Below are positions 20,658 through 46,719 of a stretch of DNA of 64,000 nucleotides, in pieces. The DNA is from Thermoplasmatota archaeon. GTDB taxonomy: Archaea; Thermoplasmatota; Penumbrarchaeia; Penumbrarchaeales; Penumbrarchaeaceae. The notes under the pieces were generated by a model. The model was not told where the DNA came from and searched no databases. It was given only the letters and a program-made list of their open reading frames with translations. Where the stretch lies: the NCBI GenBank assembly GCA_965234725.1, contig CBDDUX010000038.1:8257-72256 (forward strand), written 5' to 3'. How positions within the stretch are numbered: position 1 is the first letter of the stretch; each line of letters begins with the position of its first letter. The position numbers were made by a program, and so were the translations under genes.

Positions 20658-23600
20658 TCAGTCCGTTACACGGCTGAGACAGGTCGCAGCGATCCTGTAA
20701 GCTTTAAGATATTCCTTCTTTATTACAAGGTTCTGGATGGTCTCGATATCCCTCTTGATCTCTCCAGTAGCTTTTCCCTGTGTATGCCTGATCTTCATTT
20801 CCTGACGTATCTCGGCTATCAGGGAGAATAGTTTGGTCTTGGCTTCCTCTGGATCTAGCTCTATCTCATCCATCGCTATGTCACCTGGAACAGGATCAGG
20901 ATCCATACCACCTGGACCGCTGATCCCAGAAGTTGAAAGCGTGGAGATCTTCTTCACAAGGGATGACATCTCGGATCTAGCCTTTTCAACATCAGCAGCT
21001 TCTATTAGATCCCTGATTCGAGCCATTGATTCCCTAAGGCCTTCAACCGGCACCCCTGCATCGACAAGCTTCTTTATCTTCCCCTCTTGTCCAATAAGAC
21101 CTCCCCTGAGCTCATCCAGCTGTGATTGCAGTTCCACTCTATTTTCTATTCTATCCTTCAAGGTCAGTATCTGTTTATCGACCAGTTCTATAACGGAATC
21201 AACATCACCAGCATCCATAAGGACCTTGGCTTTTGTGTGAGCCGCTTTAAAGGTGGCTACCTTCAAACCAACAGATCTGGCATTCTTGATAAAGGTTCCA
21301 AGTTCCTCAAGAATAATGGATGCCCTGGCCGTTTTAACCTCCTGACTCAGCTTCTCCCTCATACCATAAAGATGCTCCATGGCATCCTTGAACCTACCAT
21401 CATCGGCCATATTATAAGAATGCTGGATCTCCGGTTCAAGATCTCCGAGAGTCAGTCCATATCTTTCAGAATCGCTCCAAAGGTCCCGGATCTCCTTCTC
21501 TATGATAGAGAAGGTCCGTTTGGTCATCCTTTCATCCAATTCCACCTGGGCCCTTGTCATGAGGTCAAGTGATTCTTCAACATCACCTGATCTCATTTTC
21601 TCCCTTGCCATGTCCATTATCCTCTTGGAAGCTTCAGTATCGACTAGGAGTCCTTCGGCTTCTTTCAGGGTGGCCATTGCATTATCGAGCCTGTCCCCGA
21701 TCACAAGAGAGAGCTTCTTCTTCCGGAGCTCCTTTAATAGTGACCTCTCCCTTTCCACACTTGATTTATCCTTCCTTTCGAGATATAGGTCCTTTACCTC
21801 TTCAAGACCTTTCTCGAAGTGGTCAACATCCACTCCCTGTTGCCTCAGGCCTTTCATCTCGTTCATTATCATTATCATTAATTTCTGATACTCGACCCTC
21901 AATTCATCACGTCTCATATAGTTGAGCCTTTCATTGAGTATATCCATCTGAGCGTCGAAGTCCTCCATCTTACCATTGGAAAGTGCTTTGGTCGCCAATT
22001 CCAATGGCTCGTCCAGAGGTGAAACGTCTATGGATAGACCTAAAAGCTCGTTCCGTGTCGAAAGGACCTCGTTCAGGCTTCTCTCGGCCTGTTTCCTGAT
22101 ACTGATGGTCACTATCTTCTTGAAGGTTGTTTCAGCCTTTGTTAGAAGTTCCTGGGCCACTTCCAGATCATTATCCTCAAGGGCCTTCTCTGATTTCTCG
22201 AGTATCACTTCCACAGGCTTGGCGTCCATGGATTGATGGAGGGACTCAAGTTTCTCCTTTAGAACATTGATGCCTTTTTCCAGGGTTTGTGTTCTGCTCT
22301 CTTCAAGATCGGCCAATGTATGCGCCGCATCATCAAGAAGCTTCTCCATCCCCTCAAGTGCGCCTTGAATATCAGATGAGAATCTTGACAGGAGGTGGTC
22401 CTTCTCCCTCACCATCCTGATATGATCTTCTGATGCTTCACCCAGTATGTAGGATATCCTCTGTATCATGGGTTCAACGGACTGGAGTATCATTTCGAAC
22501 TTCCGTTTCTCTGCTATTGCAGCTTCTCCCGTGACCTCTTGATAGAGTTTCCTGAAATTCATGTAAACGGTTACTGTGTCATTTTCCGAACCTTCAGGGA
22601 ACCGTTCTATCTTCTGGCTGAACGCAGTTCTTTTCTCCTCATCCACAACCCTGCTGAGAAGCGACTTCATTTCCTTTGTCTTATCTTTCATTTCCTTCTG
22701 GAGGTCTGAGAAAAGCATCTGATTATCTTTTTCAATGAGTTCAAGGGAGGTCCTCAATTCCTTCAAGGAAGTGATGAGGTGTTCCACATCACCGGAGTTG
22801 ACACCTTTCATTATCGTGGTAATGTTTGGGACCTTACCATCCAATCTCACCTGTTTCCCTATATCAAGGTACTGAGATTCCACAGCCCGGATGTTGGCTA
22901 TCATGTTGTTGATCGCATTTGGAGCAAGGGATACCAGGTACTGTGATAGCCAGTCGTATGATATCTTCCAGTATTGATCCAACATTCCCATATCTTTACG
23001 CTGGAAGGCCTCCTTCATAGCCTTGAGATGGGGTTGAATGCCACTTGTATCTCCTCCGATCATTCTGGCTTCCCGGTCAAGGTCTTCCACCAATCGAACC
23101 TTCTCCAAGGAGGGGTCCGTTACCTCAGCATTATCCTCCTTCAATTCAATATGATCAGGCTTGAGAGAAGGAGCTTGAGGCGCTTCCTCCATCTCATCAG
23201 GTATCTCAACGTCTTCTGTTTTTCCATGTGAACTATCATCTTTTGAGAGGTCCTTCTTCTCAAGGACCTCCACTTCAATATTTGAAGTGGGCTGAGGGAC
23301 CTGATCTTCTTTTCCAATGGATCTTGATCCTTCTTTTTTATCAGGATGAGCACTGTCCTTTTGTTTTTTGGATGTTGATGAGGAGGGAGGTTTGTCATCA
23401 ACCGATCCACTTTCCTGGATGTCTGAACCTTCTGGTTTATTTTGAGTGGGTGCACCATCTGCTGATATCCCAAGCTGGGAGGATACTTTTTCAAGATAGA
23501 CCTCGAATTTCGAAAGGGCCCGAAGAAGTTCCTTTTCAGGAGCTGCTTTGGCCACTTTTTCTATCTTATTCAGGCTATCTCTAAGCTTTCCTATATCCTG

Positions 23601-23681
23601 CCCCTTCTCTTCGATCTGTTTAAGGATACTCCAGCTCTTACTGATCCTTGCCTGAACAGAGCTATCCCCTTTCTGGACCAT
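20658..23681 (-). CDS. Giant coiled-coil protein (1007 aa) with acidic Ser/Lys/Asp-rich low-complexity N-region
   Basis: Heptad-like K/E/L-rich sequence throughout. No Walker motifs, so not SMC/Rad50. Confidence 0.55.
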   Translation of the reverse strand: MVQKGDSSVQARISKSWSILKQIEEKGQDIGKLRDSLNKIEKVAKAAPEKELLRALSKFEVYLEKVSSQLGISADGAPTQNKPEGSDIQESGSVDDKPPSSSTSKKQKDSAHPDKKEGSRSIGKEDQVPQPTSNIEVEVLEKKDLSKDDSSHGKTEDVEIPDEMEEAPQAPSLKPDHIELKEDNAEVTDPSLEKVRLVEDLDREARMIGGDTSGIQPHLKAMKEAFQRKDMGMLDQYWKISYDWLSQYLVSLAPNAINNMIANIRAVESQYLDIGKQVRLDGKVPNITTIMKGVNSGDVEHLITSLKELRTSLELIEKDNQMLFSDLQKEMKDKTKEMKSLLSRVVDEEKRTAFSQKIERFPEGSENDTVTVYMNFRKLYQEVTGEAAIAEKRKFEMILQSVEPMIQRISYILGEASEDHIRMVREKDHLLSRFSSDIQGALEGMEKLLDDAAHTLADLEESRTQTLEKGINVLKEKLESLHQSMDAKPVEVILEKSEKALEDNDLEVAQELLTKAETTFKKIVTISIRKQAERSLNEVLSTRNELLGLSIDVSPLDEPLELATKALSNGKMEDFDAQMDILNERLNYMRRDELRVEYQKLMIMIMNEMKGLRQQGVDVDHFEKGLEEVKDLYLERKDKSSVERERSLLKELRKKKLSLVIGDRLDNAMATLKEAEGLLVDTEASKRIMDMAREKMRSGDVEESLDLMTRAQVELDERMTKRTFSIIEKEIRDLWSDSERYGLTLGDLEPEIQHSYNMADDGRFKDAMEHLYGMREKLSQEVKTARASIILEELGTFIKNARSVGLKVATFKAAHTKAKVLMDAGDVDSVIELVDKQILTLKDRIENRVELQSQLDELRGGLIGQEGKIKKLVDAGVPVEGLRESMARIRDLIEAADVEKARSEMSSLVKKISTLSTSGISGPGGMDPDPVPGDIAMDEIELDPEEAKTKLFSLIAEIRQEMKIRHTQGKATGEIKRDIETIQNLVIKKEYLKAYRIAATCLSRVTD

Positions 23682-23775
23682 TTTCCCAGCACCTCCCGAA
23701 CATCCAAAATGCCGGGTTTATTAAAATGTACGTACGTTAATAAGGTTTCTTATCTAATTCACTAATGCTGAAAAA

Positions 23776-26535
23776 CTACCGGTTGGATGTGTCATCTCCA
23801 GTGATCTTCAGTTCCTCCACATGGGAAACGTTTTCAACCGGACCACCAAGACCTGGACCTGGTAAAGAGGTCAAAGGTGCAGAAACTCCTTTTTCATTAT
23901 AGCCTTCCGGTTTCGGACCTCCGTAGAGTTCCTCGTATGATACCTTGGGAGATGCTTCCTCCTCTTCAAGATCCTTCCCGAACGGGTCCTTTCCCTGCTT
24001 CTTCATCGTTTCGATATGATCCAGGAATTCCCTTTCTCGCTCCTTTTTCTCTTTCCTCTGTTTCTGCACAAGGATGAATCCTGTTATTCCGAAGATGACC
24101 AGTACCAAAATAATGCCAACAATGACCAGTATATTGGTGGGTTTTGCAAAATCACCAAAACTTGATGAGGAACTCCCCGAAGCATTTCCCAGTGGTTCTA
24201 TTGTTGCCACAGATAATGCACCCTCCCCTGCAGTATCAGTAATGATATACCTCTCCGCCAACCCTTTAATCTCTGCATAATCCAGGTGGTGAATGGATAC
24301 ACAGAATATTTCAAAGTCCTCCGGGTCTATCGGATATGATAATCCTCCCTCGGCCATTTCGGAAAAGGGAATATCCCAGACCAGGGTCGCCTTGTTAAGG
24401 ATCCTCCCGGTTGAATTCACATAGATGGAGGGATCACCAATGTAGCTTCTATTGGCTATCATCATATCATTTTCAGGCAATCTATAAGGGATCTCATCCC
24501 AACTTGAGATATTCTTGAAATCAATAAATGGTTCCTGATACCCGCTCTTCATAATATAGAGATGATATTGGAAGGATCCGTCGATCTGTATTGTATCCTT
24601 GATCTCAAGTAGGACCTGGATCGCATTCCCTCTTCTCTGCGTCTTTATCGAGAGGATATCCAGACCTGACTGTGCCACTGTAGAAACCGTAAAAACCCGA
24701 TCCCCGGAACCTTTCAGCTTCCATTCCTCCTGGGTCTTAACAGAATCTGATACTGGATCCCTTATATCCCTGAGAAGTTCTCCGATAGCAATATCTTCAG
24801 GAGCTTCAACAAGGATCGTAATATTCTTTTTGACCGATAGTTTTCCATCACTTACGGTTAGAACAATAGTGGTATTACCGGAATGAGATGTAGCGTAGAC
24901 ATGGGATGCCACCATCCCTTTGGAGGTCTTCCCGTCCCCCCAATCCCATTCATAGGATAGTGGGTCCAGATCAATATCCGTGAACCCGGAAGCTTGTAAG
25001 GTTATTTCTTCGGAAGGGAACAATGTCAGGTTCCCTTTCACAATTTCTATAATTCCAGCCTCCGGCTGATCGTTCACGGGTTCTATCGACAGGGCTATTT
25101 TGACTATCTCGAACCCTCCCCTACCATCACTGAGTGAAACATTGAAGAAATAACTTCCAACATCATCTTGAACAGGACTGAGGACCATTGTACCATTTTG
25201 GAACAGTTCGAAAAATGGCATCAATGCTTGAGATGCATTTGTTGCAAAGGAGAGGCTTTCATACGGATCATCATCATCACCATATATCATCTTGTAGACC
25301 TTGACGGTATCCTCATCGGCATACATGTTGAATATCTCACCATTGTATTCGGAATTTCCTATCTTTGTAATAAATGGTAGATCGTCGACCTCTTTTACGG
25401 ATATTCTGATCGAATCGGAAACGGAACCATCCAGATCCGATGCCTTGAAAGATACGATCTCCTCACCGTACCAATTTTCGGAAGGTATGATCCTTGCATG
25501 GGTGAACTGGACCTTCTTTGTCCCCTTACCAATGCTGAAATTGACGAATTTTACATCTACGTTGACATTCTTTGATGTGATCTGGAACTCTACTTTATCT
25601 CCGCCTTCCTCTATGAAGTGACTTGATAGATTGAGAGGGGGCTGAAGTTCCTCATCCTCATTAATGATTATAGTCTCGGCCCAGGGAGCCGAGATGTTCT
25701 CTATCGGGATGGTAGTTTGGGACCATTCGGTCACGTTCAGAGTATAAGAGGGACTGTTGCTGGACAGGTATTGCGCTCCTCCCTGCAGAGGGAAATAGAT
25801 CCTGAAGAATATCCGTATCTCCTGGCCCCCGTCATTTCTCAGTTCAAATACGTCCCCTTCTCCATAAGTTCCGATCAGGTCCTGTGTTGTGTTAAGGACC
25901 TCGAAGGTGGAAGGATTTGTGGTTATGAGGTAGGCTCTAACGGCTCTGAAGGGTTGTACGTCAAACTGATAATAATCAACCGGATCGTGTATGGGATTGA
26001 GATTGGTTCCCAGGGCCAGTGAACCGGAGATCCCAGCTGAACCGGGCCAGTTGATCCCATCATTCTTACTGTTGACGATATCCTTTTCTCCTCCCATCTG
26101 AAATGTATAGCCAGATGAGCTTCCCACGGGATCTGTTGATATCTCCATGAAATAGTCCCCATCATATGGGACAAAGAACTCGACATCAGACCATCCTCCA
26201 TCGGAGTAAAGTGTTGCGATCGGTCTTCCGTTGGGTTCGTAGAATACACCCTTTACATTTGCACCGGAATCCCTTTTTAATGAGAGTGCCAACCTCTGTG
26301 ACTTTTCATATTTGATATCGTCCCCTTGAAGATCCTTTATCCTGAACACATCTCTAGTATTAACTGGATCAAGATCACCGGCTCTTGCATCGGTATCAAA
26401 GAAAATATCAACAGCTTCATCGAACAGGTACTTGTTCGAATAACCATTTACATCTGGGGCTTGTATCATGAATGGTGTGAATAGGGACAGTACCATTATC
26501 GATGCTATAAAGAATCTATTGTAGGTTGAAAACAT
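23776..26535 (-). CDS. Cell-surface protein with PKD domain, C-terminal TM anchor and cytoplasmic tail
   Basis: Signal peptide starting MFSTYNRFFIASIMVLSL (ATG 26535; track start 26676 is probably over-extended). PKD signature YEWDWGDGKTSKG. C-terminal TM ILVIVGIILVLVIFGITGFILV plus KE-rich tail. Confidence 0.6.
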   Translation of the reverse strand: MFSTYNRFFIASIMVLSLFTPFMIQAPDVNGYSNKYLFDEAVDIFFDTDARAGDLDPVNTRDVFRIKDLQGDDIKYEKSQRLALSLKRDSGANVKGVFYEPNGRPIATLYSDGGWSDVEFFVPYDGDYFMEISTDPVGSSSGYTFQMGGEKDIVNSKNDGINWPGSAGISGSLALGTNLNPIHDPVDYYQFDVQPFRAVRAYLITTNPSTFEVLNTTQDLIGTYGEGDVFELRNDGGQEIRIFFRIYFPLQGGAQYLSSNSPSYTLNVTEWSQTTIPIENISAPWAETIIINEDEELQPPLNLSSHFIEEGGDKVEFQITSKNVNVDVKFVNFSIGKGTKKVQFTHARIIPSENWYGEEIVSFKASDLDGSVSDSIRISVKEVDDLPFITKIGNSEYNGEIFNMYADEDTVKVYKMIYGDDDDPYESLSFATNASQALMPFFELFQNGTMVLSPVQDDVGSYFFNVSLSDGRGGFEIVKIALSIEPVNDQPEAGIIEIVKGNLTLFPSEEITLQASGFTDIDLDPLSYEWDWGDGKTSKGMVASHVYATSHSGNTTIVLTVSDGKLSVKKNITILVEAPEDIAIGELLRDIRDPVSDSVKTQEEWKLKGSGDRVFTVSTVAQSGLDILSIKTQRRGNAIQVLLEIKDTIQIDGSFQYHLYIMKSGYQEPFIDFKNISSWDEIPYRLPENDMMIANRSYIGDPSIYVNSTGRILNKATLVWDIPFSEMAEGGLSYPIDPEDFEIFCVSIHHLDYAEIKGLAERYIITDTAGEGALSVATIEPLGNASGSSSSSFGDFAKPTNILVIVGIILVLVIFGITGFILVQKQRKEKKEREREFLDHIETMKKQGKDPFGKDLEEEEASPKVSYEELYGGPKPEGYNEKGVSAPLTSLPGPGLGGPVENVSHVEELKITGDDTSNR

Positions 26536-26631
26536 CCTATCACCCTGGACGTTCTGTAAAGCCTCCACTGGTATATTGAGGTTACCTGGATGGATATTGG
26601 AATTGGACCCATATCTACCAAGAAAATGTAC

Positions 26632-26663
26632 AAAAAAAAAGCGCCCCCGTTTAACGGGAGCGC
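26632..26663 (-). terminator. Hairpin + U9 intrinsic-like terminator downstream of 26684..28762
   Basis: On - strand GCGCUCCCG-UUAAA-CGGGGGCGC followed by UUUUUUUUU, 20 nt after the stop codon. Confidence 0.45.
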
Positions 26664-26683
26664 TTGGTTGATTCAACCCTCAC

Positions 26684-28762
26684 TCACTGTGGGGGCATTG
26701 GAGGCTCTGGCTGTGGAGGGATCGGAGGCTGCTCGGGAACTTCCGGTGCTACTGGCTCTTCCGGAGCGGGTGGCATGGATTCGTCCACAAGAGGTTCCTC
26801 GACAGGTTCTTCGACAGGTGCCTCGACTGGTGCCTCGGCTGGTGGTTGCTCATAGCTTTCTTCCATAGGCTGCTCATAGCCCTCTTCCACGGGCTGCTCG
26901 TAACCTTCTTCCATGGGCATTTCACCGGTCTCAATACCCATATCCTCCTCACCCATAGGTTCGGATTCCTCAGGTATCTCCTCTTCCTTCTTCTTGCCCT
27001 TCATCACAATAAGGATGATGACCAGAAGGATGACCAAAAGGATCACAACAACGATGATGATTATGACCATTGTATTGTCATCAGTATCTTCGTCTTTCTC
27101 GGCGATGGTCACAGAGAATGTCTGGGTTGCGGTTCCGTCATATGGGTCAACCACTGTTGCAGTAAAGGTGTATGTCCCGGGTTCCAGATCGGTTATTGTG
27201 ATAGGGTTTCCGGTCTTCTCCCAGGTGTCATCTCCGGTCCTGGTCCAGGTAACGGTAAGTGTATCCTGATCGTCTGTCACATTGGCCTCCAAGGTGAAGG
27301 ATTCTCCTTCCTTCACTTCCTCGGTCGGTCCCTCGATGGCATTTATTATTGGAGCTGTGTTGGAAATGGTCACGTTAACATGGAAGTAACCGATCTCAAC
27401 GGTCTCGATCCCGTCTGATACATAAGCGGATACGTTGTAGATCTTGGCAGTGGACCAGTTGTAAAGGAAGTAATCCATGTTCCACCCGGTGACAACGGTT
27501 CCGTCGATCTTCCAGCTGACAGTGAGGTCGTCGCCGTCCACATCCATGAGGTTGTCAACAGAGACGTTCACCTCTTCTCCGGTCTTCTTGTCGATCATCT
27601 CCGCATACCCGGTTCCCCACTCTCCAGTGGGTGCATCGTTGACAGCTTCCACGGTGAAAAGGATCCAGACGTAGGCTTCAAGGTCACCCTGGTCCATAAT
27701 CGAGTAGTTCACTAGGAAATGACCGTTGAGGTTCTCGTCAACAGTGACATTGTACTGGTGCATTCCGGAATCCCACATGACCTCTATTCCATCCATGATA
27801 TCATCGGTGATATCAACGGAGATATTCATGTGATCCGATTCTAAATCGGTGAAGTTTACTGTGAAGTTCACTCCCATCTGGTCTTCCACTAGATCGAGTT
27901 CCACAAGCCAGGAGAAGTTTCCATCCACTCCGGTCACATTGAGCAATTCGGTCACATTGACCCACATCGGCGGGTAGCTCATCTCTTCAAAGATCACCTC
28001 ATGTATAACTGGGGGATCGTTGACCGGTGCCACGTTCAGGTCAAACATCTCATATGCTGAATTACCATTGGTATCGGCTGCAGTCACATTGACCTGGGCC
28101 ATTCCCGTGAAGTTGGCGGGAGGTGTGACTTCCCACCAGGGATATCCATCCGCATCGGTGATGGGTGTGAAGGTCCAATCGTCAGGGAATCCCTCTGGCC
28201 CAACACCGAAGGTTAGGAAGGCATCTGCTTGGTCCATGACTGGGAGGAAGGCTTTGGTGAGATTCCATGCCCACATGGTGTCCTCGGTCAGTGAGGGCAT
28301 TGTAAATCCAGCGTCTAATATTACTGGATGCCAAATTGTAATCATTCCGGTTGCATTGACAGCCAGAGTGTCATTTTCAATCTCTACCATCCAGTCATGA
28401 TCACCCACATAATCAGGTGAGTCTGGGGCAAATTCATATACCCATCCTCCCCTGGTTGCGTTCCAATCATTAACATCAAGGGTCACGGGGTCAAGAGGTC
28501 CAATGGTCAACTCCAGAGTGATATTGGAATTGTTCACTGGCGCTGCCAATCCCTCGATGAACCATTCAAACGTATCCAGGATAGTGTATGCATTTCCATC
28601 GTCAGCAGGCGCAAATGTATCCGTAACAGTGACATTAATGGTTGTTGGAAGAGGCTCATCTGCCTGTACCTGAATACCAAGGAATGCCACCATAATCATA
28701 GCCATCGTAATTGATATGGCCATGGCTCTTTTTCTTAACAAGTTCTCCATACTCATCACCAC
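26684..28762 (-). CDS. Cell-surface protein (Ig/PKD-like repeats) with C-terminal TM and repetitive acidic/Pro-rich cytoplasmic tail
   Basis: Signal peptide (AMAISITMAMIMVAFLGIQVQA), beta-rich repeats, TM IIIIVVVILLVILLVIILIV, tail with EEGYEQP and PVEAPVEEP repeats and PPxP run. Confidence 0.6.
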   Translation of the reverse strand: MVMSMENLLRKRAMAISITMAMIMVAFLGIQVQADEPLPTTINVTVTDTFAPADDGNAYTILDTFEWFIEGLAAPVNNSNITLELTIGPLDPVTLDVNDWNATRGGWVYEFAPDSPDYVGDHDWMVEIENDTLAVNATGMITIWHPVILDAGFTMPSLTEDTMWAWNLTKAFLPVMDQADAFLTFGVGPEGFPDDWTFTPITDADGYPWWEVTPPANFTGMAQVNVTAADTNGNSAYEMFDLNVAPVNDPPVIHEVIFEEMSYPPMWVNVTELLNVTGVDGNFSWLVELDLVEDQMGVNFTVNFTDLESDHMNISVDITDDIMDGIEVMWDSGMHQYNVTVDENLNGHFLVNYSIMDQGDLEAYVWILFTVEAVNDAPTGEWGTGYAEMIDKKTGEEVNVSVDNLMDVDGDDLTVSWKIDGTVVTGWNMDYFLYNWSTAKIYNVSAYVSDGIETVEIGYFHVNVTISNTAPIINAIEGPTEEVKEGESFTLEANVTDDQDTLTVTWTRTGDDTWEKTGNPITITDLEPGTYTFTATVVDPYDGTATQTFSVTIAEKDEDTDDNTMVIIIIVVVILLVILLVIILIVMKGKKKEEEIPEESEPMGEEDMGIETGEMPMEEGYEQPVEEGYEQPMEESYEQPPAEAPVEAPVEEPVEEPLVDESMPPAPEEPVAPEVPEQPPIPPQPEPPMPPQ
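26790..26925. repeat. Short tandem nucleotide repeats within the tail-coding 3' end of 26684..28762
   Basis: Reiterated units ggttc(c/t)tcgacagg / ggtgcctcg(a/g)ctgg and ctcatagc(t/c)ttcttccat(a/g)ggc(t)gct visible on + strand. Confidence 0.5.
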
Positions 28763-29129: not shown

Positions 29130-30545
29130 TTGATTCAGCGCCATGCCCCTGATGACATCAAATGTTATTGGGAGGTAATGAAGGGGTCGGGTCCAATGGA
29201 AGACGAGACCATCTGGAAAAGGACGAAATTCGCTGCAGAGATTGGTGAAGAGGATTACAATACAGAGATCACTCTCTGCGGTTGGGTCCAGTATACACGT
29301 AATCTTGGAAAAATGGCCTTCGTCCATCTAAGGGATCGGACAGGGGTCTCCCAATTGACCGCTCTATCCAAGACCATGGACAAGGAGCTTTTCAACCTGA
29401 TAGTTAACGTTCCCAGGGAATCCGCTATAAGTGTTAGAGGTATCGTGAAGCAGTCAACGCAAGCCAAGGCCGGCTGGGAGATCATACCATACAAGGTCAG
29501 GGTGATGGGAGAGGCGATGACCCCACTACCCCTAGGAGTTGTGGACAAGGTTGACGCTGACATGGAGACAAGGTTGGATAACAGGTTCCTCGATCTGAGA
29601 AAACCAGAGGTCCAGGCCATCTTCATGATCAGATCGACATTGTTGAATGCTGTCAGGGAGGTCTTCCTAGAAGAAGGTTTCATAGAGATACATACTCCCA
29701 AGATAGTCGCTACCGCAACTGAAGGAGGGACAGCTCTCTTTGAGATGAAATATTTCAATAGGAAGGCATATCTGAACCAGTCCCCCCAATTGTTCAAACA
29801 GACCATGATGGCAACCGGACTTGACCGGGTCTTCGAGATAGGACCGGCATTTAGAGCCGAAGAGCACGATACCGTAAGGCATCTCAACGAGTACACCTCA
29901 ATAGACTGTGAGATGGCATGGGGGACCTTTGATGACTCATTGGAGATACTCGAAAAGGTCATTCAGAGGGTCTATTCCAATGTTCTGAACAACAACTACA
30001 TGGGCCTGGAAATGCTTGGACAGACCCTTGTATCACCAGAGAGACCGTTTCCCAGGTTGGATTATAAATGTATCATAGACAAACTCTCGGCAAGAGGACT
30101 TGAGATCCATGATGAAAAATCAGGGAAGAAGAGGGTGATCGAATGGGGAGATGACATCCCCATGGAGGGATTCAAAGAGATAGCCAAAGATAGGCCTTCC
30201 CTCTATTTCGTTATGAACTGGCCCATGAAATTGAAACCCTTCTACATTCAGCCCAATCCAGATGATCCGGAGATTTCCATGGGTTTCGACCTGAATTTCG
30301 GTGAGAAGGAGCTGGTCTCCGGAGGACAGAGGGTCCACGATCCTGAACAATTGAAGAAATTGATCAGGGAGAGAAAACTTGACCCTGCGAATTTCGATTT
30401 TTACCTCAAATCCTTTGATTACGGAATGCCTCCTCATTCCGGTTGGGGTCTTGGAGCAGAAAGGCTCACAATGATCATAACCGGACGGACCAACGTTAGG
30501 GAAACGGTGCTTTTCCCCAGGGACAAGAACAGACTCATCCCATGA
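29130..30545 (+). CDS. aspS: Aspartyl-tRNA synthetase, archaeal type
   Basis: Class II motifs FRAEEHDTVRHLNEYTSIDCEMAW and GGQRVHD. OB anticodon-binding N-domain. Likely true start at internal MEDETIWKR (about 29196). Confidence 0.85.
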   Translation: MIQRHAPDDIKCYWEVMKGSGPMEDETIWKRTKFAAEIGEEDYNTEITLCGWVQYTRNLGKMAFVHLRDRTGVSQLTALSKTMDKELFNLIVNVPRESAISVRGIVKQSTQAKAGWEIIPYKVRVMGEAMTPLPLGVVDKVDADMETRLDNRFLDLRKPEVQAIFMIRSTLLNAVREVFLEEGFIEIHTPKIVATATEGGTALFEMKYFNRKAYLNQSPQLFKQTMMATGLDRVFEIGPAFRAEEHDTVRHLNEYTSIDCEMAWGTFDDSLEILEKVIQRVYSNVLNNNYMGLEMLGQTLVSPERPFPRLDYKCIIDKLSARGLEIHDEKSGKKRVIEWGDDIPMEGFKEIAKDRPSLYFVMNWPMKLKPFYIQPNPDDPEISMGFDLNFGEKELVSGGQRVHDPEQLKKLIRERKLDPANFDFYLKSFDYGMPPHSGWGLGAERLTMIITGRTNVRETVLFPRDKNRLIP

Positions 30546-30626
30546 ACTCGGATCTTTGCAAACTGCAAAATCTAGATATATCCAGATAATCGATGGATGT
30601 AGGCCTTGTTCAGGTAGGGGAAGAAG

Positions 30627-32159
30627 ATGGATATCCAAGAGGAAGAGGGAAGGATGCCATCCATTGTCATTGTTGGAATTGGCGGTGGTGGGTCCAGGAT
30701 ACTATCAGATGGAATGGAAAAGGTCATCAAATACATCAATGTGGATAGATACAACTGCCTGGCGAGAGCTGTAAGGGCAAACACCGAAAGGCCTCTCACT
30801 TTCATCGTGGATACCTCTTCGGATCCCACCCGAAAGGGATTCTTCGAGAACATTCCGGATGACCAGAAGATATCACTTTCAGAATCTGCTCGTGGTATGT
30901 CCAGAGGTGCGGGAGGGAGACCGGGTCGGGCAGCAAAGGCAGTTCTTAATGATGAAGTCGTCAAGAACCTTGCATTCAATCTCTATAAACCGATCTCAGA
31001 AGCAGAACCTGCCATTGTTGTGATCATCCATACAGCAGACGGAGGAACCGGAGGAGGTCTGACTCCCGAGGTAATCCATCATCTTGGTTACTGCTTGCCC
31101 ATGTCCACAATATTCTGGATCTTCACCGTACTTCCGAAAAGAACAGCACTCTCTCTCCTGGGTCCAAGGACCGTGGCTCCCACAATGGGGAAACTCTTGA
31201 AGGTAGCAAGAAGGGTCACACGGAGGGATTTTACAAATATTCCATTCCGCTGCAGAGAGGTTATAAATTCAGCCATAAAACTGAAAAAGCTGGACCAGTC
31301 ATATGAGTTCCAGCATTCTCGTATCGCAATTTTTCCACTCTCCAATCACCATTTCGCCCAGTGCATGGAAGGTTTCGGCGGGAAACAGATAAGGGAAGAG
31401 GTTCTAAATCCATTCCCGATAGAACTCCTTTCCCAGGCTCTTTATCCTTATCTGAAATATAATGTCGCAACTTATGATGAACAGGTCTGGATGCAGGAGA
31501 ACTGGCCTCTCGGTCCGATAGACATCCCGGACATCATGGCGGGTCTCACATCTGAAAGGCCCTTTGTGATCCCTCACCTTTTTGTGGATCCTGATATAGA
31601 TGATCAGGATAGTATTGAGAGTGTGGTTAAGGACCTGGAGGAGGGGAGGATAAGATTGGAAGTTCAGAATGGGGAAAAAGGGAGTGAGGATCTGGGCCTC
31701 TTCACTTTCACAGGTTCCTCATCAGCTCTCTTCGAGTTCAGAGCAACATCACTCTACTGCATCCCCATATACCCGGAGGGCAGTTCATATTTCGACAGTT
31801 TTGGAGATTTCGTGTCTGATATCTGGTTTCCATCACTCTCAGGGAAATTAAAATTCATCACAGGGAAACAGGGATTGAAACTAGGGGTCATCAGCCATGC
31901 AGCCAATCTCAAACCCCAACCGATCCCAAGACCTCCAGGAGATATCGACCTGGGTTTCAAAAATGGACTTTTAGTCACACTTCTGTTTGGCGCGGTTCCC
32001 AAGGACCTACCTATCTGGCTTGAGGCGACAAGAGATATCATAGAAGGATACAAGACAGAGGATTTCTGGGAAGTATCCGGATATGATGCAAGGGATTGGT
32101 TGAACGAGATCTCAGCTTATGTTGGATGGCCTGATTGGCCTTACAAGAAATATAATTAG
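30627..32159 (+). CDS. Divergent FtsZ/tubulin-superfamily GTPase (510 aa) with long non-canonical C-terminal region
   Basis: T1 loop IVIVGIGGGGSRI. T3-like SRGAGGRPGRAAKAVLNDEVV (compare FtsZ GLGAGGNPKIGEEAA). T4 tubulin signature TADGGTGGGLTP. Putative T7 RRDFTN in place of NxDFAD. Confidence 0.55.
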   Translation: MDIQEEEGRMPSIVIVGIGGGGSRILSDGMEKVIKYINVDRYNCLARAVRANTERPLTFIVDTSSDPTRKGFFENIPDDQKISLSESARGMSRGAGGRPGRAAKAVLNDEVVKNLAFNLYKPISEAEPAIVVIIHTADGGTGGGLTPEVIHHLGYCLPMSTIFWIFTVLPKRTALSLLGPRTVAPTMGKLLKVARRVTRRDFTNIPFRCREVINSAIKLKKLDQSYEFQHSRIAIFPLSNHHFAQCMEGFGGKQIREEVLNPFPIELLSQALYPYLKYNVATYDEQVWMQENWPLGPIDIPDIMAGLTSERPFVIPHLFVDPDIDDQDSIESVVKDLEEGRIRLEVQNGEKGSEDLGLFTFTGSSSALFEFRATSLYCIPIYPEGSSYFDSFGDFVSDIWFPSLSGKLKFITGKQGLKLGVISHAANLKPQPIPRPPGDIDLGFKNGLLVTLLFGAVPKDLPIWLEATRDIIEGYKTEDFWEVSGYDARDWLNEISAYVGWPDWPYKKYN

Positions 32160-32486: not shown

Positions 32487-35400
32487 TCAGATCCTCTTGG
32501 TGGTCTTCAGCAAGAGCGCAGCTCCGACGAGTGCGACAATGGCCAGCAGGATGATGAGCATGGTGGAGATTATCGGGTTGTTGTTCACCAGCTCCTTCAC
32601 AACAAAGCTGCCCTGGACCTTGACGGTCCTGCTAACTGAGTTGCTGTCTCCTTCTCCTCCGGGTGCTTCAACAACGGTGTTCTCAGGATCGAGAATTACC
32701 TCGACCTTGTGATCACCTGCTTCTGCGACCCAGGAGAAGATGACCGTCTTCTCATCGGTCTCATTGTCTCCGTTCCTTACTGACCTCAGGGTCGAGACCT
32801 TCTTCTCCTCACCATCGATCTTCAGCTGGACATCCACGTTCTCTGCGGGGATATCACCGACGTTCTTGATCTTCACTATAATAGTGAGGACATCACCGAC
32901 GGTGGCATGATAACCGCTGTCTGCGTTACCACCCGAGAATTCCACTGCCCTGCCCTTATCGTCCTTCACGAAGACGAGATCGGGGAACAGGACCTCGAGC
33001 TTGATGATGGTCTCATTCCAATCGTTCGGACCACCCTCTCCGCGACCTGCGACAGAGATGTCTGTGGTCGCTGAGGACTGGACCTCGAACCTCGGAGCCT
33101 TCAAAGTCAGATGGACCCATGCGGTCTGACCCTTATCCAGGACAAGGGTTATGTCGCGGATCTCGTTCAGGTTGGATCCAGAAACCGCTGCTGCGGTGAA
33201 GTTCGGTGTGTAGTAAACATCCGCCACCAGATTCGAGATCGGGATCTCGTTGGTGAAGTCGAAGGGTCTTATGTTGGTCGTGAAGTCAGGTGTGTTGGCG
33301 ATTGCAACAAACTTACCTTCCCAACCATCATAGAGGACCTCCATCTGGTCCCTGACCGGATCATACTGCTTTCCAAGCCTCAGGGTTACCCTCTCGAGGC
33401 CGTTTCCGTAGTTGCCGACCCGGAGGACGAATGGTTTCTCCTGGTCAGGCTGGATCTGGGCGGTCATGACATTGGTATCGTCCAGGGTTTCGACCTGTAG
33501 ATCGTATGTCTGATTCACATAGACCTTAACGTATACGACCTTGGATGAGCCTTCACCTGTCAGATTCACTCCAACAACATACCAACCGGTCCTTGTGTTT
33601 TCCGGGACCTTGATACGGCCGTTGATGAAGATATTGCTCTTCCAGTCCATGGTGAACTCATACTTCTGGTAACCTTCCAGATTGTAGAAGGTCAGATTCC
33701 AATCAAGGAGGATCTCGTAGGCATTGGGCATGATCATGTCCTCGCCGTTCCCAAGGTTGGATACCTGCATCCTGAACCATACGTTGTTGCCGGGATCCAC
33801 CCTTACACTGTCCTTTTCAATTACCACCGCATCGAACTCATAGACATGGTTGACTATGACCGTCAGCGGAGCAGAAGCACGGATATTGGTGGCATCTTTG
33901 ACCACACCTATCACATTCAGGACCAGCTTCTGATTTGCTCCAACGTATCCGGGGGCAGTTACTCTGATGGTAACAGGTCTTGTCTGTCCCTGGTATACCG
34001 CCTGGGGTTCCTCGGGATATCTAACTGTCCAGCCAGGCTGCTTACCTTCTATTGAGAGTACAACATAGATAATATCCTTGTTACCAAGGTTGGTTATCTC
34101 AAGTGTGTATTCCACAGTTCCGTTCGGATCAACATATTTGGTGGAATCCTCGATCCTGAGCTGAAGTTCGTTCACCTCACCGACTATCATGATCAGTTTG
34201 TCGACCTTGATGATATCCTCGATAACTGCTTCCTTGGACCTTCCGGAAACACCGGTCAATATGATGGGGATCTGTGTATCCTTGGTAGCATCGATGGGAC
34301 ATTTCACCTTTACGGTGAATGAAGTTCCGGTGATCCCACCGAACTGTTCGGCAAGAGGCGGCGCAGTAAGGGATATGTTCGCTGTAATATCTCCGGTCTC
34401 AACGAAATACCAATCCCAACCAGCATCCAGTGGAGGCGGGCTGAGTGTAAGCTCGTAGGTATCATTGAGGTTGCCCTTGTTCAGTACGGATATCGTGTAT
34501 ATACCTTCAGCTCCCGGATTGATCTTGTCCCATTTCTCGCCAACAAGCGGATCAAGGGGATCGGTGGAAGGTTGTTTCAGGTAGTTCAACTCGAAATCCA
34601 CGAACAGGTCCAGGATCGTCAGGGTGGTTATCGAATCCGAAGCGAACTGGTCCTGTGAAGAGTTGGCAGATACATTGATCCTTGCCATCTCTCCGATGTC
34701 ACCTTCCCACGGAGCATAGACCGTCAACTGAAGGAAAGCAACCTCTTGTGAAGCGAGTCTCACATAGCTCGGATTATCGTTTCCTCTGTCTGGGGGTGTG
34801 TCCAGGAAGACAGACCAGCCCTGGGGGATGGAATCCTGCTCGACTTCAACATAGATAACGTCCTTGTTGACCTCTGAGATGCCCTTTCCGGTGTTCTCAA
34901 CGGTCAGGTTGTATGTGACATATGATCCGGGCTGGGCGGACTTCACAACGGTGTCCAGGGGTTGTCCGGTCTCTATGTCCTTCCTGGGATAGATATCCAC
35001 ACCGAAGGAGGTCTGGGGGTTGTAGAATCCGGTCCTGTTGAGATCATAGTGGAACTCGGCCCAATCGGCCTGGCCCTTTACGGACCTTCCACCAGCGGAG
35101 ATGCAGTAGACATGGCCTTCCTGGTCTCCAATGACGACCTCAAGCATACCATCCAGATCTATGTCACCAACCACTGGTGATGAGATCCCTATGGGGACTG
35201 TGGTGTCGTAAACCCAGAGAACATCCTGGGTAGGACCGTCTCCCGGATATGGTACTCCTTCATCTATACCATCGGACGGATCTCCATCGAAACAGAAGAC
35301 CTTGCCCGAATCAGAACCTATAACGATCTCCAATTCATCATCATTGTTGATATTACATATCGCGGGAGAAGACATACATCTTCCACCCGTATCGAAAGAC

Positions 35401-36725
35401 CATAGAAGGTTATGATATTCAGTGTTCATCACATACATCATACCATTATCGGATCCGAAGACCACCTCATAGTCGAGATGCTTCTCTTCGGGATCGTCCT
35501 TTGCCACCTGAAGATCGGCAACTGCCGGTGATGAGAAAATGGAGGCACGGGAACTGCCGGTCTGGTAGTCCCAGAGCTTCTTTCCGGAAGGAGTATAGAC
35601 ATAGAGCTTTCCGCCCCATCCGGTCCAGGTCCTCGGATATCCTTCGGAACATCCGATGAAGATCTCACACTCTGGGGAACCTGTGACGTTTGCAACAGCG
35701 GATGTTGCATAGGTCTGGTGACCTCCCAGATATCCGCTTGTGCTCTCGTCATAGTTGGGTTTCCCCTCAGCGTTCTCTCCCTGCCTTTCCCAGATCCTCA
35801 GACCCCTATCGTGGTTTCCTATGATGAGCTCGGTGTCCCTTTCCTTGGATGGATCAGGATTGATCAGCTCTGGACCATCCCAGAAATCACCATCAAGGTC
35901 GTGGGCGACGACAGAGCATCCGATAAGACCTCCCTCACCGCCGGTCGGAGCTTCTTCTCTGAAGATCGCACCACCGTCGACCTCGAAGGCCTCCATCCAA
36001 CCCTTCCTTCCTTCATCATCGGAAGCAAGGACGATCTCAAGGTCCTCCTTGTCACCAGTCCAATCTCCTTCAAGATCGGTGATACAGGCTGTGGAGAAGT
36101 AATATCCAGTTGTCAATCCCTTCTTCCACTGCTTCTCTCCATCCGATCCGATACAAAGGGCTCCGTCCTTCACACCAATGATGATCTCGGGAGTATCACC
36201 AAGGTTCACATCAGCCGCAATGACCGATGCAAAGATGTGCGGAGGATCGAAATCGAGACCGGACGTACCAGCCGTCTGTCCGAGATAATCTATGACATCA
36301 TCACCATACGGATTGGGCCAAAAATAGCCCCCGTCAGGTCGTAATGCATAGATGTAATCACCAGCAGAGGCGATGACGACCTCAAGATCGTTGTCATTGT
36401 CCAGATCGACAATGGCAGGGGAAGAGAGATATTCTCCCTCAGCCTCGAACAAGGTGGTCTGCCATTCCAGCTGACCTCCGCCAGACCTGGTGATGTAGTC
36501 ATTCACAAGCGGGTTTCCAGTATCATCTACGGGTGCCTTGATCTGACCAAATTTCTCGAAGAGATCCCTCTTCGAATTGAGCCAGGTATCGAAAACAAGG
36601 TTGTCGACATCAACTGTATCGACATATTTGTAAAGCACATATCCCCCAATGGCCGAAGCCGTGAGGAGCATCAGGATGCCCCCCATGAGCAGTAGTCCCT
36701 TGGGGTGGAATCTTTCTGTAATCAT
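32487..36725 (-). CDS. Giant cell-surface protein (1412 aa): signal anchor, FG-GAP/PQQ-like beta-propeller repeats, multiple CARDB/Ig-like domains, C-terminal TM
   Basis: Repeated VIGSD.G.VY motifs (propeller blades). Repeated ...Y.L.V.N.GN... Ig-like units. C-terminal TM IISTMLIILLAIVALVGAALLL + KTTKRI. Confidence 0.65.
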   Translation of the reverse strand: MITERFHPKGLLLMGGILMLLTASAIGGYVLYKYVDTVDVDNLVFDTWLNSKRDLFEKFGQIKAPVDDTGNPLVNDYITRSGGGQLEWQTTLFEAEGEYLSSPAIVDLDNDNDLEVVIASAGDYIYALRPDGGYFWPNPYGDDVIDYLGQTAGTSGLDFDPPHIFASVIAADVNLGDTPEIIIGVKDGALCIGSDGEKQWKKGLTTGYYFSTACITDLEGDWTGDKEDLEIVLASDDEGRKGWMEAFEVDGGAIFREEAPTGGEGGLIGCSVVAHDLDGDFWDGPELINPDPSKERDTELIIGNHDRGLRIWERQGENAEGKPNYDESTSGYLGGHQTYATSAVANVTGSPECEIFIGCSEGYPRTWTGWGGKLYVYTPSGKKLWDYQTGSSRASIFSSPAVADLQVAKDDPEEKHLDYEVVFGSDNGMMYVMNTEYHNLLWSFDTGGRCMSSPAICNINNDDELEIVIGSDSGKVFCFDGDPSDGIDEGVPYPGDGPTQDVLWVYDTTVPIGISSPVVGDIDLDGMLEVVIGDQEGHVYCISAGGRSVKGQADWAEFHYDLNRTGFYNPQTSFGVDIYPRKDIETGQPLDTVVKSAQPGSYVTYNLTVENTGKGISEVNKDVIYVEVEQDSIPQGWSVFLDTPPDRGNDNPSYVRLASQEVAFLQLTVYAPWEGDIGEMARINVSANSSQDQFASDSITTLTILDLFVDFELNYLKQPSTDPLDPLVGEKWDKINPGAEGIYTISVLNKGNLNDTYELTLSPPPLDAGWDWYFVETGDITANISLTAPPLAEQFGGITGTSFTVKVKCPIDATKDTQIPIILTGVSGRSKEAVIEDIIKVDKLIMIVGEVNELQLRIEDSTKYVDPNGTVEYTLEITNLGNKDIIYVVLSIEGKQPGWTVRYPEEPQAVYQGQTRPVTIRVTAPGYVGANQKLVLNVIGVVKDATNIRASAPLTVIVNHVYEFDAVVIEKDSVRVDPGNNVWFRMQVSNLGNGEDMIMPNAYEILLDWNLTFYNLEGYQKYEFTMDWKSNIFINGRIKVPENTRTGWYVVGVNLTGEGSSKVVYVKVYVNQTYDLQVETLDDTNVMTAQIQPDQEKPFVLRVGNYGNGLERVTLRLGKQYDPVRDQMEVLYDGWEGKFVAIANTPDFTTNIRPFDFTNEIPISNLVADVYYTPNFTAAAVSGSNLNEIRDITLVLDKGQTAWVHLTLKAPRFEVQSSATTDISVAGRGEGGPNDWNETIIKLEVLFPDLVFVKDDKGRAVEFSGGNADSGYHATVGDVLTIIVKIKNVGDIPAENVDVQLKIDGEEKKVSTLRSVRNGDNETDEKTVIFSWVAEAGDHKVEVILDPENTVVEAPGGEGDSNSVSRTVKVQGSFVVKELVNNNPIISTMLIILLAIVALVGAALLLKTTKRI

Positions 36726-41334: not shown

Positions 41335-41350
41335 ATCCGATCACCCTGGA

Positions 41351-46032: not shown

Positions 46033-46719
46033 ATGACGGATGAAAAAGACCAGATGGATTCAGGGGCAAGACAGGAATTCGGAATAAGGAAGATGGAACT
46101 TGTCAGGATAATCGAAGGCAAGGAGGGAGGTCAGGGAAAGGGGACTTCATCTGTTACCCTTGTTAAGACTCCGACATCAACAGTTGTGGTTGACTCTGGG
46201 GCAAGGCATGTCAGAGAGAGACTTGTTAGCTTCATGAGGGAGAACGAAGCAAAGGTGGAAAAGGTCAACGTACTGCTAACAACATCCGTTGACGATCTAC
46301 ATGCCGGCAATGATGACCTTTTCGTTCATTGCCTTCAACATATCCTTGATTCGGATTGGGGGAAAACACCGGTCAAATCCCAGAGGAAGGTCGCAATAAC
46401 CACTCCTGTGCATTGGATCGATAAATATCTGAAGATCGTCAAACTGCCCTTCCCAGGGGATGGGTCCCTGGCCCTTCTTGCACATTTTCCAGATAGGGAG
46501 GAACTTCTGGAGCCGTCCACAATACCTTTCAAAGGCCAAGTGGTGGGGATAATGGGGGCCTCTGTCCCATCCATGGATCACCCTGAGGTTAGGACCGCAT
46601 TGAAGAAGGCATTGAAAACGGAAAAAAGGACCGGAAGTATCGATACATTGGAGGACCTTATAGGTTATTGTGACCATATCATCCCATCCTATGGAGCTAT
46701 GTTCAAGGTCAGGGGATGA
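46033..46719 (+). CDS. Hypothetical protein, possibly degenerate metallo-beta-lactamase fold; first gene of e2b2-deoA operon
   Basis: VVVDSGARH resembles MBL strand motif, but HxHxDH is replaced by SVDDLHAGN. ATGA overlap with downstream gene. Confidence 0.35.
   Translation: MTDEKDQMDSGARQEFGIRKMELVRIIEGKEGGQGKGTSSVTLVKTPTSTVVVDSGARHVRERLVSFMRENEAKVEKVNVLLTTSVDDLHAGNDDLFVHCLQHILDSDWGKTPVKSQRKVAITTPVHWIDKYLKIVKLPFPGDGSLALLAHFPDREELLEPSTIPFKGQVVGIMGASVPSMDHPEVRTALKKALKTEKRTGSIDTLEDLIGYCDHIIPSYGAMFKVRG

Follow-up and report, generated by a model that had tools for sequence, protein, structure and literature searches.

What kind of GTPase is encoded just downstream of aspS in the 64,000-nucleotide stretch of Thermoplasmatota DNA analysed here (the window)? 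Proteins of the tubulin/FtsZ superfamily function in division, shape and DNA segregation across all domains of life, and each newly characterised branch (CetZ, TubZ, PhuZ, and the Odin and Asgard tubulins) has given a new filament architecture or function. Thermoplasmatota include wall-less, pleomorphic species. A first-pass annotation assigned the gene to a divergent lineage of this superfamily with an altered, possibly hydrolysis-deficient T7 loop and a unique 280-residue C-terminus. The question is whether the product is such an impaired paralog or a complete, GTP-hydrolysing member of the superfamily.

The predicted open reading frame was confirmed as real and encodes 510 residues (Table 1). 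It is separated from aspS by an 81-bp gap, and this adjacency is restricted to the 4 closest of 38 loci. No conserved neighbour gene or operon was found across the 38 loci compared, and no dcw-like genes surround the GTPase gene, in agreement with the annotation's description of a gene standing alone after aspS. Canonical ftsZ is absent from the window and all fetched flanks (513 kb), a span that at ~13 kb per genome is uninformative on whole genomes. A set of VWA and AAA (MoxR-like) genes at 39397-42799 was considered as an FtsZl1-style partner and rejected: it is encoded on the opposite strand at a distance of 7 kb and is not conserved near the homologues.

Table 1. Features of the GTPase gene and its upstream neighbour (window coordinates; residue numbers of the 510-aa protein; fractions are counts of family sequences)
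Feature	Residues	Coordinates	Strand	Remarks
CDS, 510-aa tubulin/FtsZ-superfamily GTPase		30627..32159	+	ATG start; stop codon included
aspS (archaeal-type AspRS), upstream neighbour		29130..30545	+	Pfam tRNA-synt_2 E=9e-88; context, not a conserved partner
T1 loop GIGGGGS, phosphate binding	17-23	30675..30695	+	G17, G19-G22, S23 identical 74/74
Extended H1-S2 loop with helix	36-57	30732..30797	+	D40, R41, Y42 invariant; helix 40-49 in model
T2-like VDTSS, end of S2	61-65	30807..30821	+	D62, T63 74/74; S64 73/74
T3 loop GAGGRPG, gamma-phosphate sensor	94-100	30906..30926	+	G94, A95, G96, G97, P99, G100 74/74
T4 tubulin signature ADGGTGGG	137-144	31035..31058	+	D138 to G144 74/74
Family-specific H5-S6 insertion, holds RRDFTN	199-231	31221..31319	+	before S6 (233-239); insertion relative to CetZ (hhalign); variable
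S6 end and T6, FPLSNHH	236-242	31332..31352	+	S239, N240 74/74
Core helix H7, LNPFPIELLSQALYPYLKY	260-278	31404..31460	+	model helices 263-271, 273-280; aligned with CetZ H7 'RINTMVAQRLLF'
Predicted T7 loop and H8, WPLGPIDIPDIMAG	293-306	31503..31544	+	last loop-helix before S7 (313-320) in model
C-terminal (activation) alpha/beta domain	307-454	31545..31988	+	S7-H9-S8-H10-S9-S10; extra hairpins ~347-375, ~413-447
Near-invariant low-confidence loop ISHAANLKPQPIP, between S9 and S10	422-434	31890..31928	+	
C-terminal helical extension, ends GWPDWPYKKYN	461-510	32007..32156	+	helices 461-499, pLDDT 80-91

The motifs of the predicted nucleotide-binding domain are intact. Conservation of its motifs was counted across 74 full-length family sequences, and the T1, T3 and T4 loops picked out by the first-pass annotation stand: the checked Gly, Ser, Asp and Thr core residues are identical in all 74. 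T1 aligns (hhalign) with its counterparts in FtsZ, CetZ and tubulin, T3 aligns with FtsZ GAGANP and has R or K at position 98 across the family, and in comparisons with TubZ, Asgard tubulin, gamma-tubulin and CetZ the best-aligned stretch is T4. Both sequence marks of the superfamily, the T1 glycine loop (GIGGGGS) and a T4 signature of the GGGTG[ST]G-like type (DGGTGGG), are present. The T2-like segment aligns with FtsZ 'VNTD' and tubulin 'VDLEP'. The H1-S2 region aligns with that of CetZ and tubulin and has a loop of the same length, which is absent from E. coli FtsZ, where residues 27-45 face a gap. Extending the CetZ alignment places N240 on the T6 Asn (N176 of CetZ 3zid) and N261 on the H7 Asn, and leaves 199-231 as an insertion. 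The 'SN' of T6 is common to three distant relatives, P0090, P0091 and P0093; N261 is invariant (74/74) and is likewise common to the distant relatives.

Profile-sequence and profile-profile alignments are unreliable past H7 and were not used for T7. The loop was instead placed at WPLGPIDIPDIMAG because this is the sole loop-helix between H7 and the first strand of the C-terminal domain in the model topology. Its equivalence to T7 is most likely, judged by secondary-structure order, spacing, motif pattern and conservation and not by residue-level superposition. The T7-H8 segment GPIDIPDIMAG contains D299 and D302, both invariant (74/74) and predicted to be the synergy/catalytic acid pair. By a placement that draws on topology, spacing and conservation, they would provide the acidic T7 residue that superfamily members carry at the start of H8. 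The corresponding columns of the distant relatives read LDPSDL, LDPNDI and IDPSEY (D-P-x-[D/E]), and the D-x-x-[D/E] pattern matches FtsZ NVDFAD, alpha-tubulin NVDLTE and CetZ TDLGDF and VDTSEV, the sequences of 3zid and 4b45 having been read through T7 from the PDB alignment. The homologous residue is catalytic in alpha-tubulin (E254; PMC13394414), FtsZ1 and FtsZ2 (D250 and D231; 10.1101/2020.06.04.133736), and CetZ1 and CetZ2 (E218 and E212; PMC13644373). The loop departs from the canonical 'NxDxxD/E' in that the leading Asn is replaced by P297. The predicted catalytic acid comes 62 residues after the T6 Asn, a spacing of 44-48 in CetZ, FtsZ and tubulin; an extra helix at 283-291 explains the difference.

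Two other routes to T7 were tried and set aside. Alignments to E. coli FtsZ and to textbook FtsZ and tubulin sequences gave conflicting T7 placements and were trusted to T5 only. One hhalign run gave a weak hint for E257/E258 ('IREEV'). These residues follow the T6 Asn by only 18 positions, the strand after them is 55 positions off, and in the CetZ alignment they fall just N-terminal to H7.

The annotation had read T7 at RRDFTN. This hexapeptide (residues 199-204, nt 31221-31238) sits where H5 ends, in the N-terminal domain; it precedes S6, falls inside the insertion relative to CetZ and varies across the family, with D201 in 65 of the 74 sequences and E, N, D, R or Q at position 199. The suggestion that T7 is altered, and possibly hydrolysis-deficient, arose because the wrong segment was read: the loop at the T7 position keeps the invariant D299 and D302.

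The AF2 model (pLDDT 82, pTM 0.89) has the two-domain organisation of the superfamily, with a GTPase domain, H7 and a C-terminal alpha/beta domain. A Foldseek search, which the annotation had proposed as a check, returned beta-tubulins as the best matches (E ~5e-12, TM 0.6-0.66). On superposition 308 of 342 CetZ residues and ~360 (356-369) tubulin residues are matched, CetZ being the best fold match of the model. The supposed absence of a C-domain from the last 280 residues holds for the FtsZ_C and Tubulin_C sequence models, which fail, and not for the fold; the 'unique' C-terminus is a canonical C-terminal domain with insertions and, after it, a helical extension. The model has no disordered C-terminal tail, the C-terminus being helical. 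A proposed match of 'YDARDWLNEISAY' to tubulin H12 'SEAREDMAALEKDY' was discarded: residues 440-510 scored 10.4 against tubulin H11-H12, below the mean of column shuffles (11.7 +/- 2.4) and not significant.

Sequence models place the family in the superfamily at large, and those for FtsZ, FtsZ_C, Tubulin_C and Tubulin_2 fail. PF00091 matches all 30 members searched (best E=7e-9), the window protein itself, at 28.2 bits, falling short of the GA of 33; the distant relatives P0090, P0091 and P0093 score 48-55 bits. The FtsZ equivalog TIGR00065 has a cut-off of 295.2 bits, and the window protein scores 11.3 bits with it. FtsZ_C (PF12327) and Tubulin_C (PF03953) match neither the window protein nor the 30 members, and Tubulin_2 (PF13809) has no match in the window protein at E<=1 and weak matches, below GA, in 4 of the 30. 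These failures, together with a family profile that finds no FtsZ, CetZ or tubulin, bear out the annotation's placement of the gene in a standalone, non-canonical paralog lineage outside FtsZ1 and FtsZ2.

Identity to tubulins (alpha/beta/gamma, BtubA/B, Odin, Asgard) is 9-14%, and the family protein differs from them in its short S7-H9 'M-loop', the lack of an acidic tail and its encoding by a single gene instead of an A/B pair. Relative to FtsZ it lacks the flexible linker and C-terminal peptide, carries the extra H1-S2 insertion and is not found in an ftsZ-type context. Like the family, FtsZl1 and FtsZl2 are divergent within the superfamily, have large C-terminal regions unlike that of FtsZ and are present alongside other systems. 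FtsZl1, which the annotation had offered as one option, has no identifiable T6-H7, a coiled coil, a helical C-domain and operons with vWA, GTPase and OmpA genes (PMC2875224). It is excluded on that definition: the family has T6, H7, T7 and an alpha/beta C-domain, and has neither a coiled coil nor a vWA operon, nor any conserved operon. FtsZl2 retains all motifs plus a ~300-aa C-terminal alpha/beta region and is confined to Proteobacteria (PMC2875224). Its architecture is superficially like the family's; its host range differs (Proteobacteria versus Thermoplasmatota), and the family profile found no bacterial relative.

The family is small and strongly constrained. Only 15 matches to its profile were found among 1.84 billion (1.84e9) representative proteins, with no FtsZ, CetZ, tubulin or bacterial relative among them; a three-sequence profile of the distant sister lineages recovered only P0091 itself. 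The family occurs at 34 loci in ~32 GTDB genomes/species, all uncultured Thermoplasmatota; the MAG CAWEDU01 (MFD03804.bin.2.29) has a copy of 95% identity. In the 74-sequence alignment 112 of 510 positions are invariant, and dN/dS values of 0.04-0.06 indicate strong purifying selection. Identity tracks that of the adjacent AspRS (94.5, 88.6 and 82.5% for the GTPase versus 96.1, 91.5 and 84.0% for AspRS), the GTPase evolving about as slowly as the synthetase. The family has escaped annotation: its named database members are all labelled 'hypothetical', and the window protein is below the threshold of the Pfam Tubulin model, the model behind published surveys.

The reading best suited to these results, to which a probability of about 0.7 is assigned, is a complete two-domain, GTP-hydrolysing and filament-forming protein that represents a previously undescribed ~510-aa family limited to an uncultured Thermoplasmatota clade. 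The N-terminal Rossmann-like domain would take GTP via the intact T1-T6 loops and H7, and subunits would then stack head to tail into protofilaments. The T7-H8 segment (GPIDIPDIMAG, with D299 and D302) would reach into the nucleotide pocket of the subunit next to it and bring about hydrolysis, so that the filaments would be dynamic like those of FtsZ, CetZ and tubulin. Given the intact catalytic loop, dynamic cytoskeletal filaments are the most likely product, probably homopolymers since no paired paralog is nearby. The protein may serve a core function in the cell, whether in its shape, its division or the organisation of its membranes. If it polymerises, the protein would be a fifth archaeal tubulin-like cytoskeletal system, and since one gene suffices and no partner is needed, it is a tractable target in vitro.

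A bolder form of this reading appears unlikely: a deep independent branch of the superfamily, of the rank of FtsZ, CetZ or tubulin, serving as the principal cytoskeletal or division polymer of one Thermoplasmatota clade and possibly replacing CetZ or one FtsZ paralog. Were it true, the invariant loops (ISHAANLKPQPIP and the H1-S2 DRY helix) would specify a filament of new architecture or its attachment to the membrane.

It is distinctly improbable that the family is a very divergent, insertion-laden CetZ subfamily, a reading that keeps the same mechanism and differs in classification alone. CetZ is the best fold match, and hhalign to CetZ over the GTPase domain gives Prob 95.5% and E=1.5e-8. 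Identity to CetZ (3zid, 4b45) is 13-15%, with no mutual detection by HMMER profiles; profile searches with HMMER detected no CetZ. A 142-aa 3zid fragment used as a query for full-length CetZ returned fragments only, and tblastn against plasmids gave no match. The family protein (510 aa) is about 150 aa longer than CetZ (~350-400 aa), by five insertions or extensions: the H5-S6 insert, the helix before T7, two C-domain hairpins and the C-terminal helical extension. Published CetZ hosts are Halobacteria, Methanomicrobiales, Methanosarcinales, Archaeoglobales and Thermococcales (PMC9856176), which belong to other phylum-level groups than the hosts of the present family, all Thermoplasmatota.

Improbable, too, is a non-polymerising tubulin-fold GTPase that works as an enzyme or switch in the form of a monomer or dimer and whose 'T7' acids serve another role. 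The big family-specific insertions and the structured C-terminal extension could stand in the way of canonical contacts, be they longitudinal or lateral, no partner genes are present, and FtsZl1 offers a precedent in which filament formation has been questioned (PMC2875224). Unlike FtsZl1, however, the family has a complete and invariant longitudinal interface (T3, T5, H7, T7-H8 and C-domain), and conservation over its whole surface, with 112 invariant positions and a dN/dS of ~0.05, is of the kind usual in cytoskeletal proteins that form polymers.

A domesticated segregation tubulin of the TubZ/PhuZ type, derived from a mobile element or virus, is very improbable. Such an origin is hinted at by the distant relative P0091, which sits in an ORFan operon beside an rve integrase and weakly matches the PhuZ PHROG (E=5e-7), and by TubZ as the best raw PDB sequence match of the window protein (E=1.6, or 0.057 with the profile). 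The family itself had no match in viral contigs, PHROGs or PADLOC, and it shows neither a plasmid or phage location nor the TubR/centromere partners or jumbo phage that go with TubZ and PhuZ. A hydrolysis-deficient paralog that has lost its T7 catalytic Asp and forms static filaments, or acts as a cap or regulator, is scarcely credible: RRDFTN does look like NxDFAD with its final Asp swapped and the true T7 is without the leading Asn, but RRDFTN is an unconserved stretch of an insertion ahead of S6, and two invariant Asp in a D-x-x-D arrangement are found in the loop that takes the T7 position.

For the preferred reading, a complete filament-forming GTPase, the family-specific elements (H5-S6 insert, pre-T7 helix, C-domain hairpins including ISHAANLKPQPIP, and C-terminal extension) may mediate lateral or partner contacts, which is speculative. 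The ISHAANLKPQPIP loop is absent from the distant relatives in the alignment and is modelled with pLDDT <50 at 421-427; by inference only, it is a candidate lateral-contact or partner-binding site. Within it H424, A426, N427, L428, K429 and Q431 are each conserved in 73 of 74 sequences, and P430 and P432 in all 74.

The first-pass annotation had read RRDFTN as a defective T7 loop. The string is present, but it does not occupy the T7 position, and this most eye-catching claim is refuted. In the predicted structure RRDFTN lies where H5 ends, ahead of S6, and hence inside the nucleotide-binding domain. It is variable: 65 of the 74 aligned members have D201, and position 199 can be E, N, D, R or Q. 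With T7 defined as the loop joining H7 to H8, immediately ahead of S7, the matching segment is WPLGPIDIPDIMAG, in which none of the 74 sequences departs from W293, P294, G296, P297, D299, D302, I303, M304, A305 and G306. Its D-x-x-D plus hydrophobic residue matches the pattern of several reference sequences: E. coli FtsZ (N207-V-D-F-A-D212), M. thermophila CetZ (T-D217-L-G-D220-F), H. volcanii CetZ2 (V-D-T-S-E-V) and alpha-tubulin (N-V-D251-L-T-E254). The Glu of the CetZ2 motif is the catalytic E212 (PMC13644373), and a role of E254 in alpha-tubulin is documented (PMC13394414).

Profile alignment to real CetZ sequences is significant (Prob 95.5%, E=1.5e-8). When extended, it places N240 on the T6 Asn (N176) and N261 on the H7 Asn (N195) of CetZ, and leaves residues about 199-231, RRDFTN included, as an insertion. 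The T6 Asn is separated from the catalytic acid by 47 residues in FtsZ, 48 in alpha-tubulin, 44 in CetZ and 62 in the 510-aa protein, the last longer because of the extra helix after H7. The evidence for this predicted assignment of T7 is topology, spacing, pattern and conservation, not residue-level superposition. The acidic pair E257/E258 was rejected as T7, being too near T6 and too distant from S7.

The AlphaFold2 model, computed from an alignment of 30 sequences, is confident (mean pLDDT 82, pTM 0.89). It scored highest against CetZ 3zid (27.5; 308/342 residues superposed) and CetZ2 4b45 (27.4; 318), followed by BtubA (25.7; 356), Asgard AtubB2 (25.3; 364), alpha-tubulin (25.2; 363), OdinTubulin (24.4; 360), gamma-tubulin (24.1; 358), FtsZ (23.9; 293), TubZ/RepX (21.7-23.8; 288-333) and PhuZ (about 19; 272-279); folds outside the superfamily scored 9.1 or lower. 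Foldseek independently ranked beta-tubulins and BtubA at the top (E about 5e-12, TM 0.6-0.66). Since about 90% of the CetZ chain superposes, the C-terminal domain must be within the match; the 280 aa thought to be unique are the canonical C-terminal domain with insertions, then a helical extension. In the model the C-terminus is structured, aromatic and basic, and replaces the disordered tail.

Coordinates of the features discussed (structural elements from the AlphaFold2 model; nucleotides in the window unless a locus is named)
Feature	Residues	Nucleotides (strand)
Tubulin-like gene, ATG start	510 aa	30627-32159 (+)
GIGGGGS	17-23	
GAGGRPG	94-100	
ADGGTGGG	137-144	
RRDFTN	199-204	31221-31238
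T7	293-306	
S1	13-18	
T1 + H1	19-35	
Inserted helix after H1	40-49	
S2	58-62	
S3	81-83	
T3 + H3	99-126	
S4	130-136	
T4 + H4	141-156	
S5	162-169	
H5	183-199	
H5-S6 insert, with helix	207-216	
S6	233-239	
Helices between S6 and H7	240-247, 252-260	
H7, two segments	263-271, 273-280	
Extra helix after H7	283-291	
Loop ahead of H8	292-299	
H8	300-303	
S7	313-320	
H9	327-339	
S8 between H9 and H10; H10	392-405	
S9 then S10	S10 448-454	
C-terminal helices	461-499	
Antisense ORFs		30120-30979 (-), 31088-31345 (-), 31754-32053 (-)
P0011 gene		L044 5688-7235
P0091 gene		L040 6632-8143
P0091 operon		L040 2802-14339 / L041 1955-13492
MoxR-VWA pair		39397-42799 (-)
Large surface/secreted-protein regions		20658-28762 (-), 32487-36725 (-), 53204-56557 (+), 60904-63957 (-), 6547-9228 (+)
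ORF of 1007 aa		20658-23681
IF-2B and phosphorylase-like genes		46716-49286 (+)
ORFs of 454, 410 and 496 aa		50468-53065 (-), 57023-58513 (-)
Arg-rich ORF		51833-53065

The three glycine-rich motifs noted from the sequence are all there. The Pfam Tubulin/FtsZ GTPase model covers residues 12-173 (E=2.8e-6) at 28.2 bits, below its curated 33-bit cut-off, and with the FtsZ equivalog TIGR00065 the score is 11 bits, where 295 is required; the C-terminal 330 aa had no match in these scans. All 30 aligned family members match PF00091 and none matches FtsZ_C or Tubulin_C; Tubulin_2 matches four weakly. When 1.84 billion cluster representatives were searched exhaustively with an HMMER profile (E<=1e-3), just 15 proteins were retrieved, namely one full-length cluster, its fragments and three distant proteins, and no FtsZ, CetZ or tubulin. 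CetZ gives the closest fold, and membership of the family in CetZ is unlikely. Tested for membership, the protein falls outside FtsZ, TubZ/PhuZ and also FtsZl1, which had been suggested earlier, and probably outside tubulin proper.

The distant proteins P0090 (about 500 aa, profile E 5e-14), P0091 (503 aa, 2e-12) and P0093 (about 500 aa, 2e-6) are near-singletons. They exceed the Pfam Tubulin threshold (48-55 bits) and share the T6 'SN', the H7 Asn and D-P-x-[D/E] in the T7 columns, thereby bridging the family to the remaining superfamily. P0091 (55 bits) also matches a PhuZ PHROG weakly. Its co-directional operon has overlapping starts and large ORFans (1277, 503, 430, 549, 194 and about 893 aa) with no Pfam match, and an rve integrase lies upstream in L041; the ensemble resembles a mobile-element or virus-like cassette organised around the tubulin-like protein. 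In full-text literature searches, a tubulin-superfamily clade specific to Thermoplasmatota was nowhere described. Published surveys are based on PF00091, COG0206 or COG5023 (PMC9871819, PMC13394414), and published mention is limited to unspecified 'non-canonical TSF proteins' (PMC9856176). We rate the family as new at family level, within a known superfamily.

Among 5.8 billion clustered proteins searched there were 82 relatives (48-99% identity), mostly full length (about 500-545 aa), the named ones all 'hypothetical' and from Thermoplasmatota or Thermoplasmata MAGs. Invariant positions number 112 of 510 in an alignment of 74 full-length sequences and are scattered along the entire length. 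Identities to the three closest genomes are 94.5, 88.6 and 82.5%, those of the adjacent AspRS 96.1, 91.5 and 84.0%, and dN/dS is 0.04-0.06; the gene is thus under purifying selection akin to what an essential housekeeping enzyme experiences. A GTDB scan (one genome per species, 185,579 species) turned up 34 loci, spread over about 32 MAGs with never more than one copy per MAG, all labelled Thermoplasmatota, Thermoplasmata, Thermoplasmatales, Methanomassiliicoccales or 'Methanobacteriota archaeon'. P0011, a 72%-identical member, carries the NCBI label '[Eubacterium] cellulosolvens' (GCA_975970955.1); its 12-kb contig bears an archaeal-type HTH_HVO_0163 regulator and is most likely archaeal, mis-binned into a bacterial assembly.

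The gene follows aspS, as had been noted; this aspS is archaeal-type (tRNA-synt_2, E=9e-88) and ends 81 bp upstream. The gene is convergent with a gene for a 1412-aa surface protein (FG-GAP/beta-propeller/CARDB). Neighbour clustering of 38 loci revealed no conserved partner: the commonest neighbour family occurs in nine, aspS adjoins in just the four closest, and example contexts are housekeeping genes that differ between loci. No relatives were found on IMG/VR viral contigs, and PHROG and PADLOC gave no match. Antisense ORFs of 85-172 aa over aspS and the tubulin-like gene, which face strongly conserved coding sequence, can almost certainly be dismissed as spurious.

The best-supported reading, from sequence and model, is a GTP-dependent, self-activating protofilament former working like FtsZ, CetZ and tubulin, and hence a dynamic cytoskeletal polymer. 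Nucleotide would be bound by T1 to T6 and H7, all intact; the intact T7-H8 and C-domain would form the longitudinal interface and trigger hydrolysis in trans. The polymer is probably a homopolymer; the window showed no second gene of the tubulin superfamily. Constraint and context point to a likely core cell function, for instance in division, cell shape or the organisation of membranes. Family-specific features are candidate sites of lateral or partner contact: the H5-S6 insert, the additional helix ahead of T7, the C-domain hairpins, including the nearly invariant yet flexible ISHAANLKPQPIP loop, and the C-terminus.

Seven kb from the tubulin-like gene and on the opposite strand, an AAA+ ATPase (MoxR, PrkA or Mg-chelatase-like, 482 aa) adjoins a VWA-domain protein (645 aa); the pair superficially resembles the FtsZl1-vWA association, but it is not conserved in the neighbourhood of the tubulin-like gene's homologues. 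Very large proteins predicted to be secreted or at the surface are unusually frequent in the window. Besides the 1412-aa protein, they include PKD/Big_9 proteins whose tails are acidic and Pro-rich, two gingipain-like Peptidase_C25 proteins and, at 1017 aa, a protein carrying five DOMON domains. An IF-2B-family gene (ribose-1,5-bisphosphate isomerase-like) directly precedes an AMP/thymidine-phosphorylase-like gene, a gene order that matches the archaeal AMP salvage pathway supplying type III RuBisCO; RuBisCO itself was not seen in the window. The 1007-aa ORF and three mid-sized ORFs have no Pfam match; of the mid-sized ones, that at 51833-53065 has an Arg-rich N-terminus (RRRRRRG).
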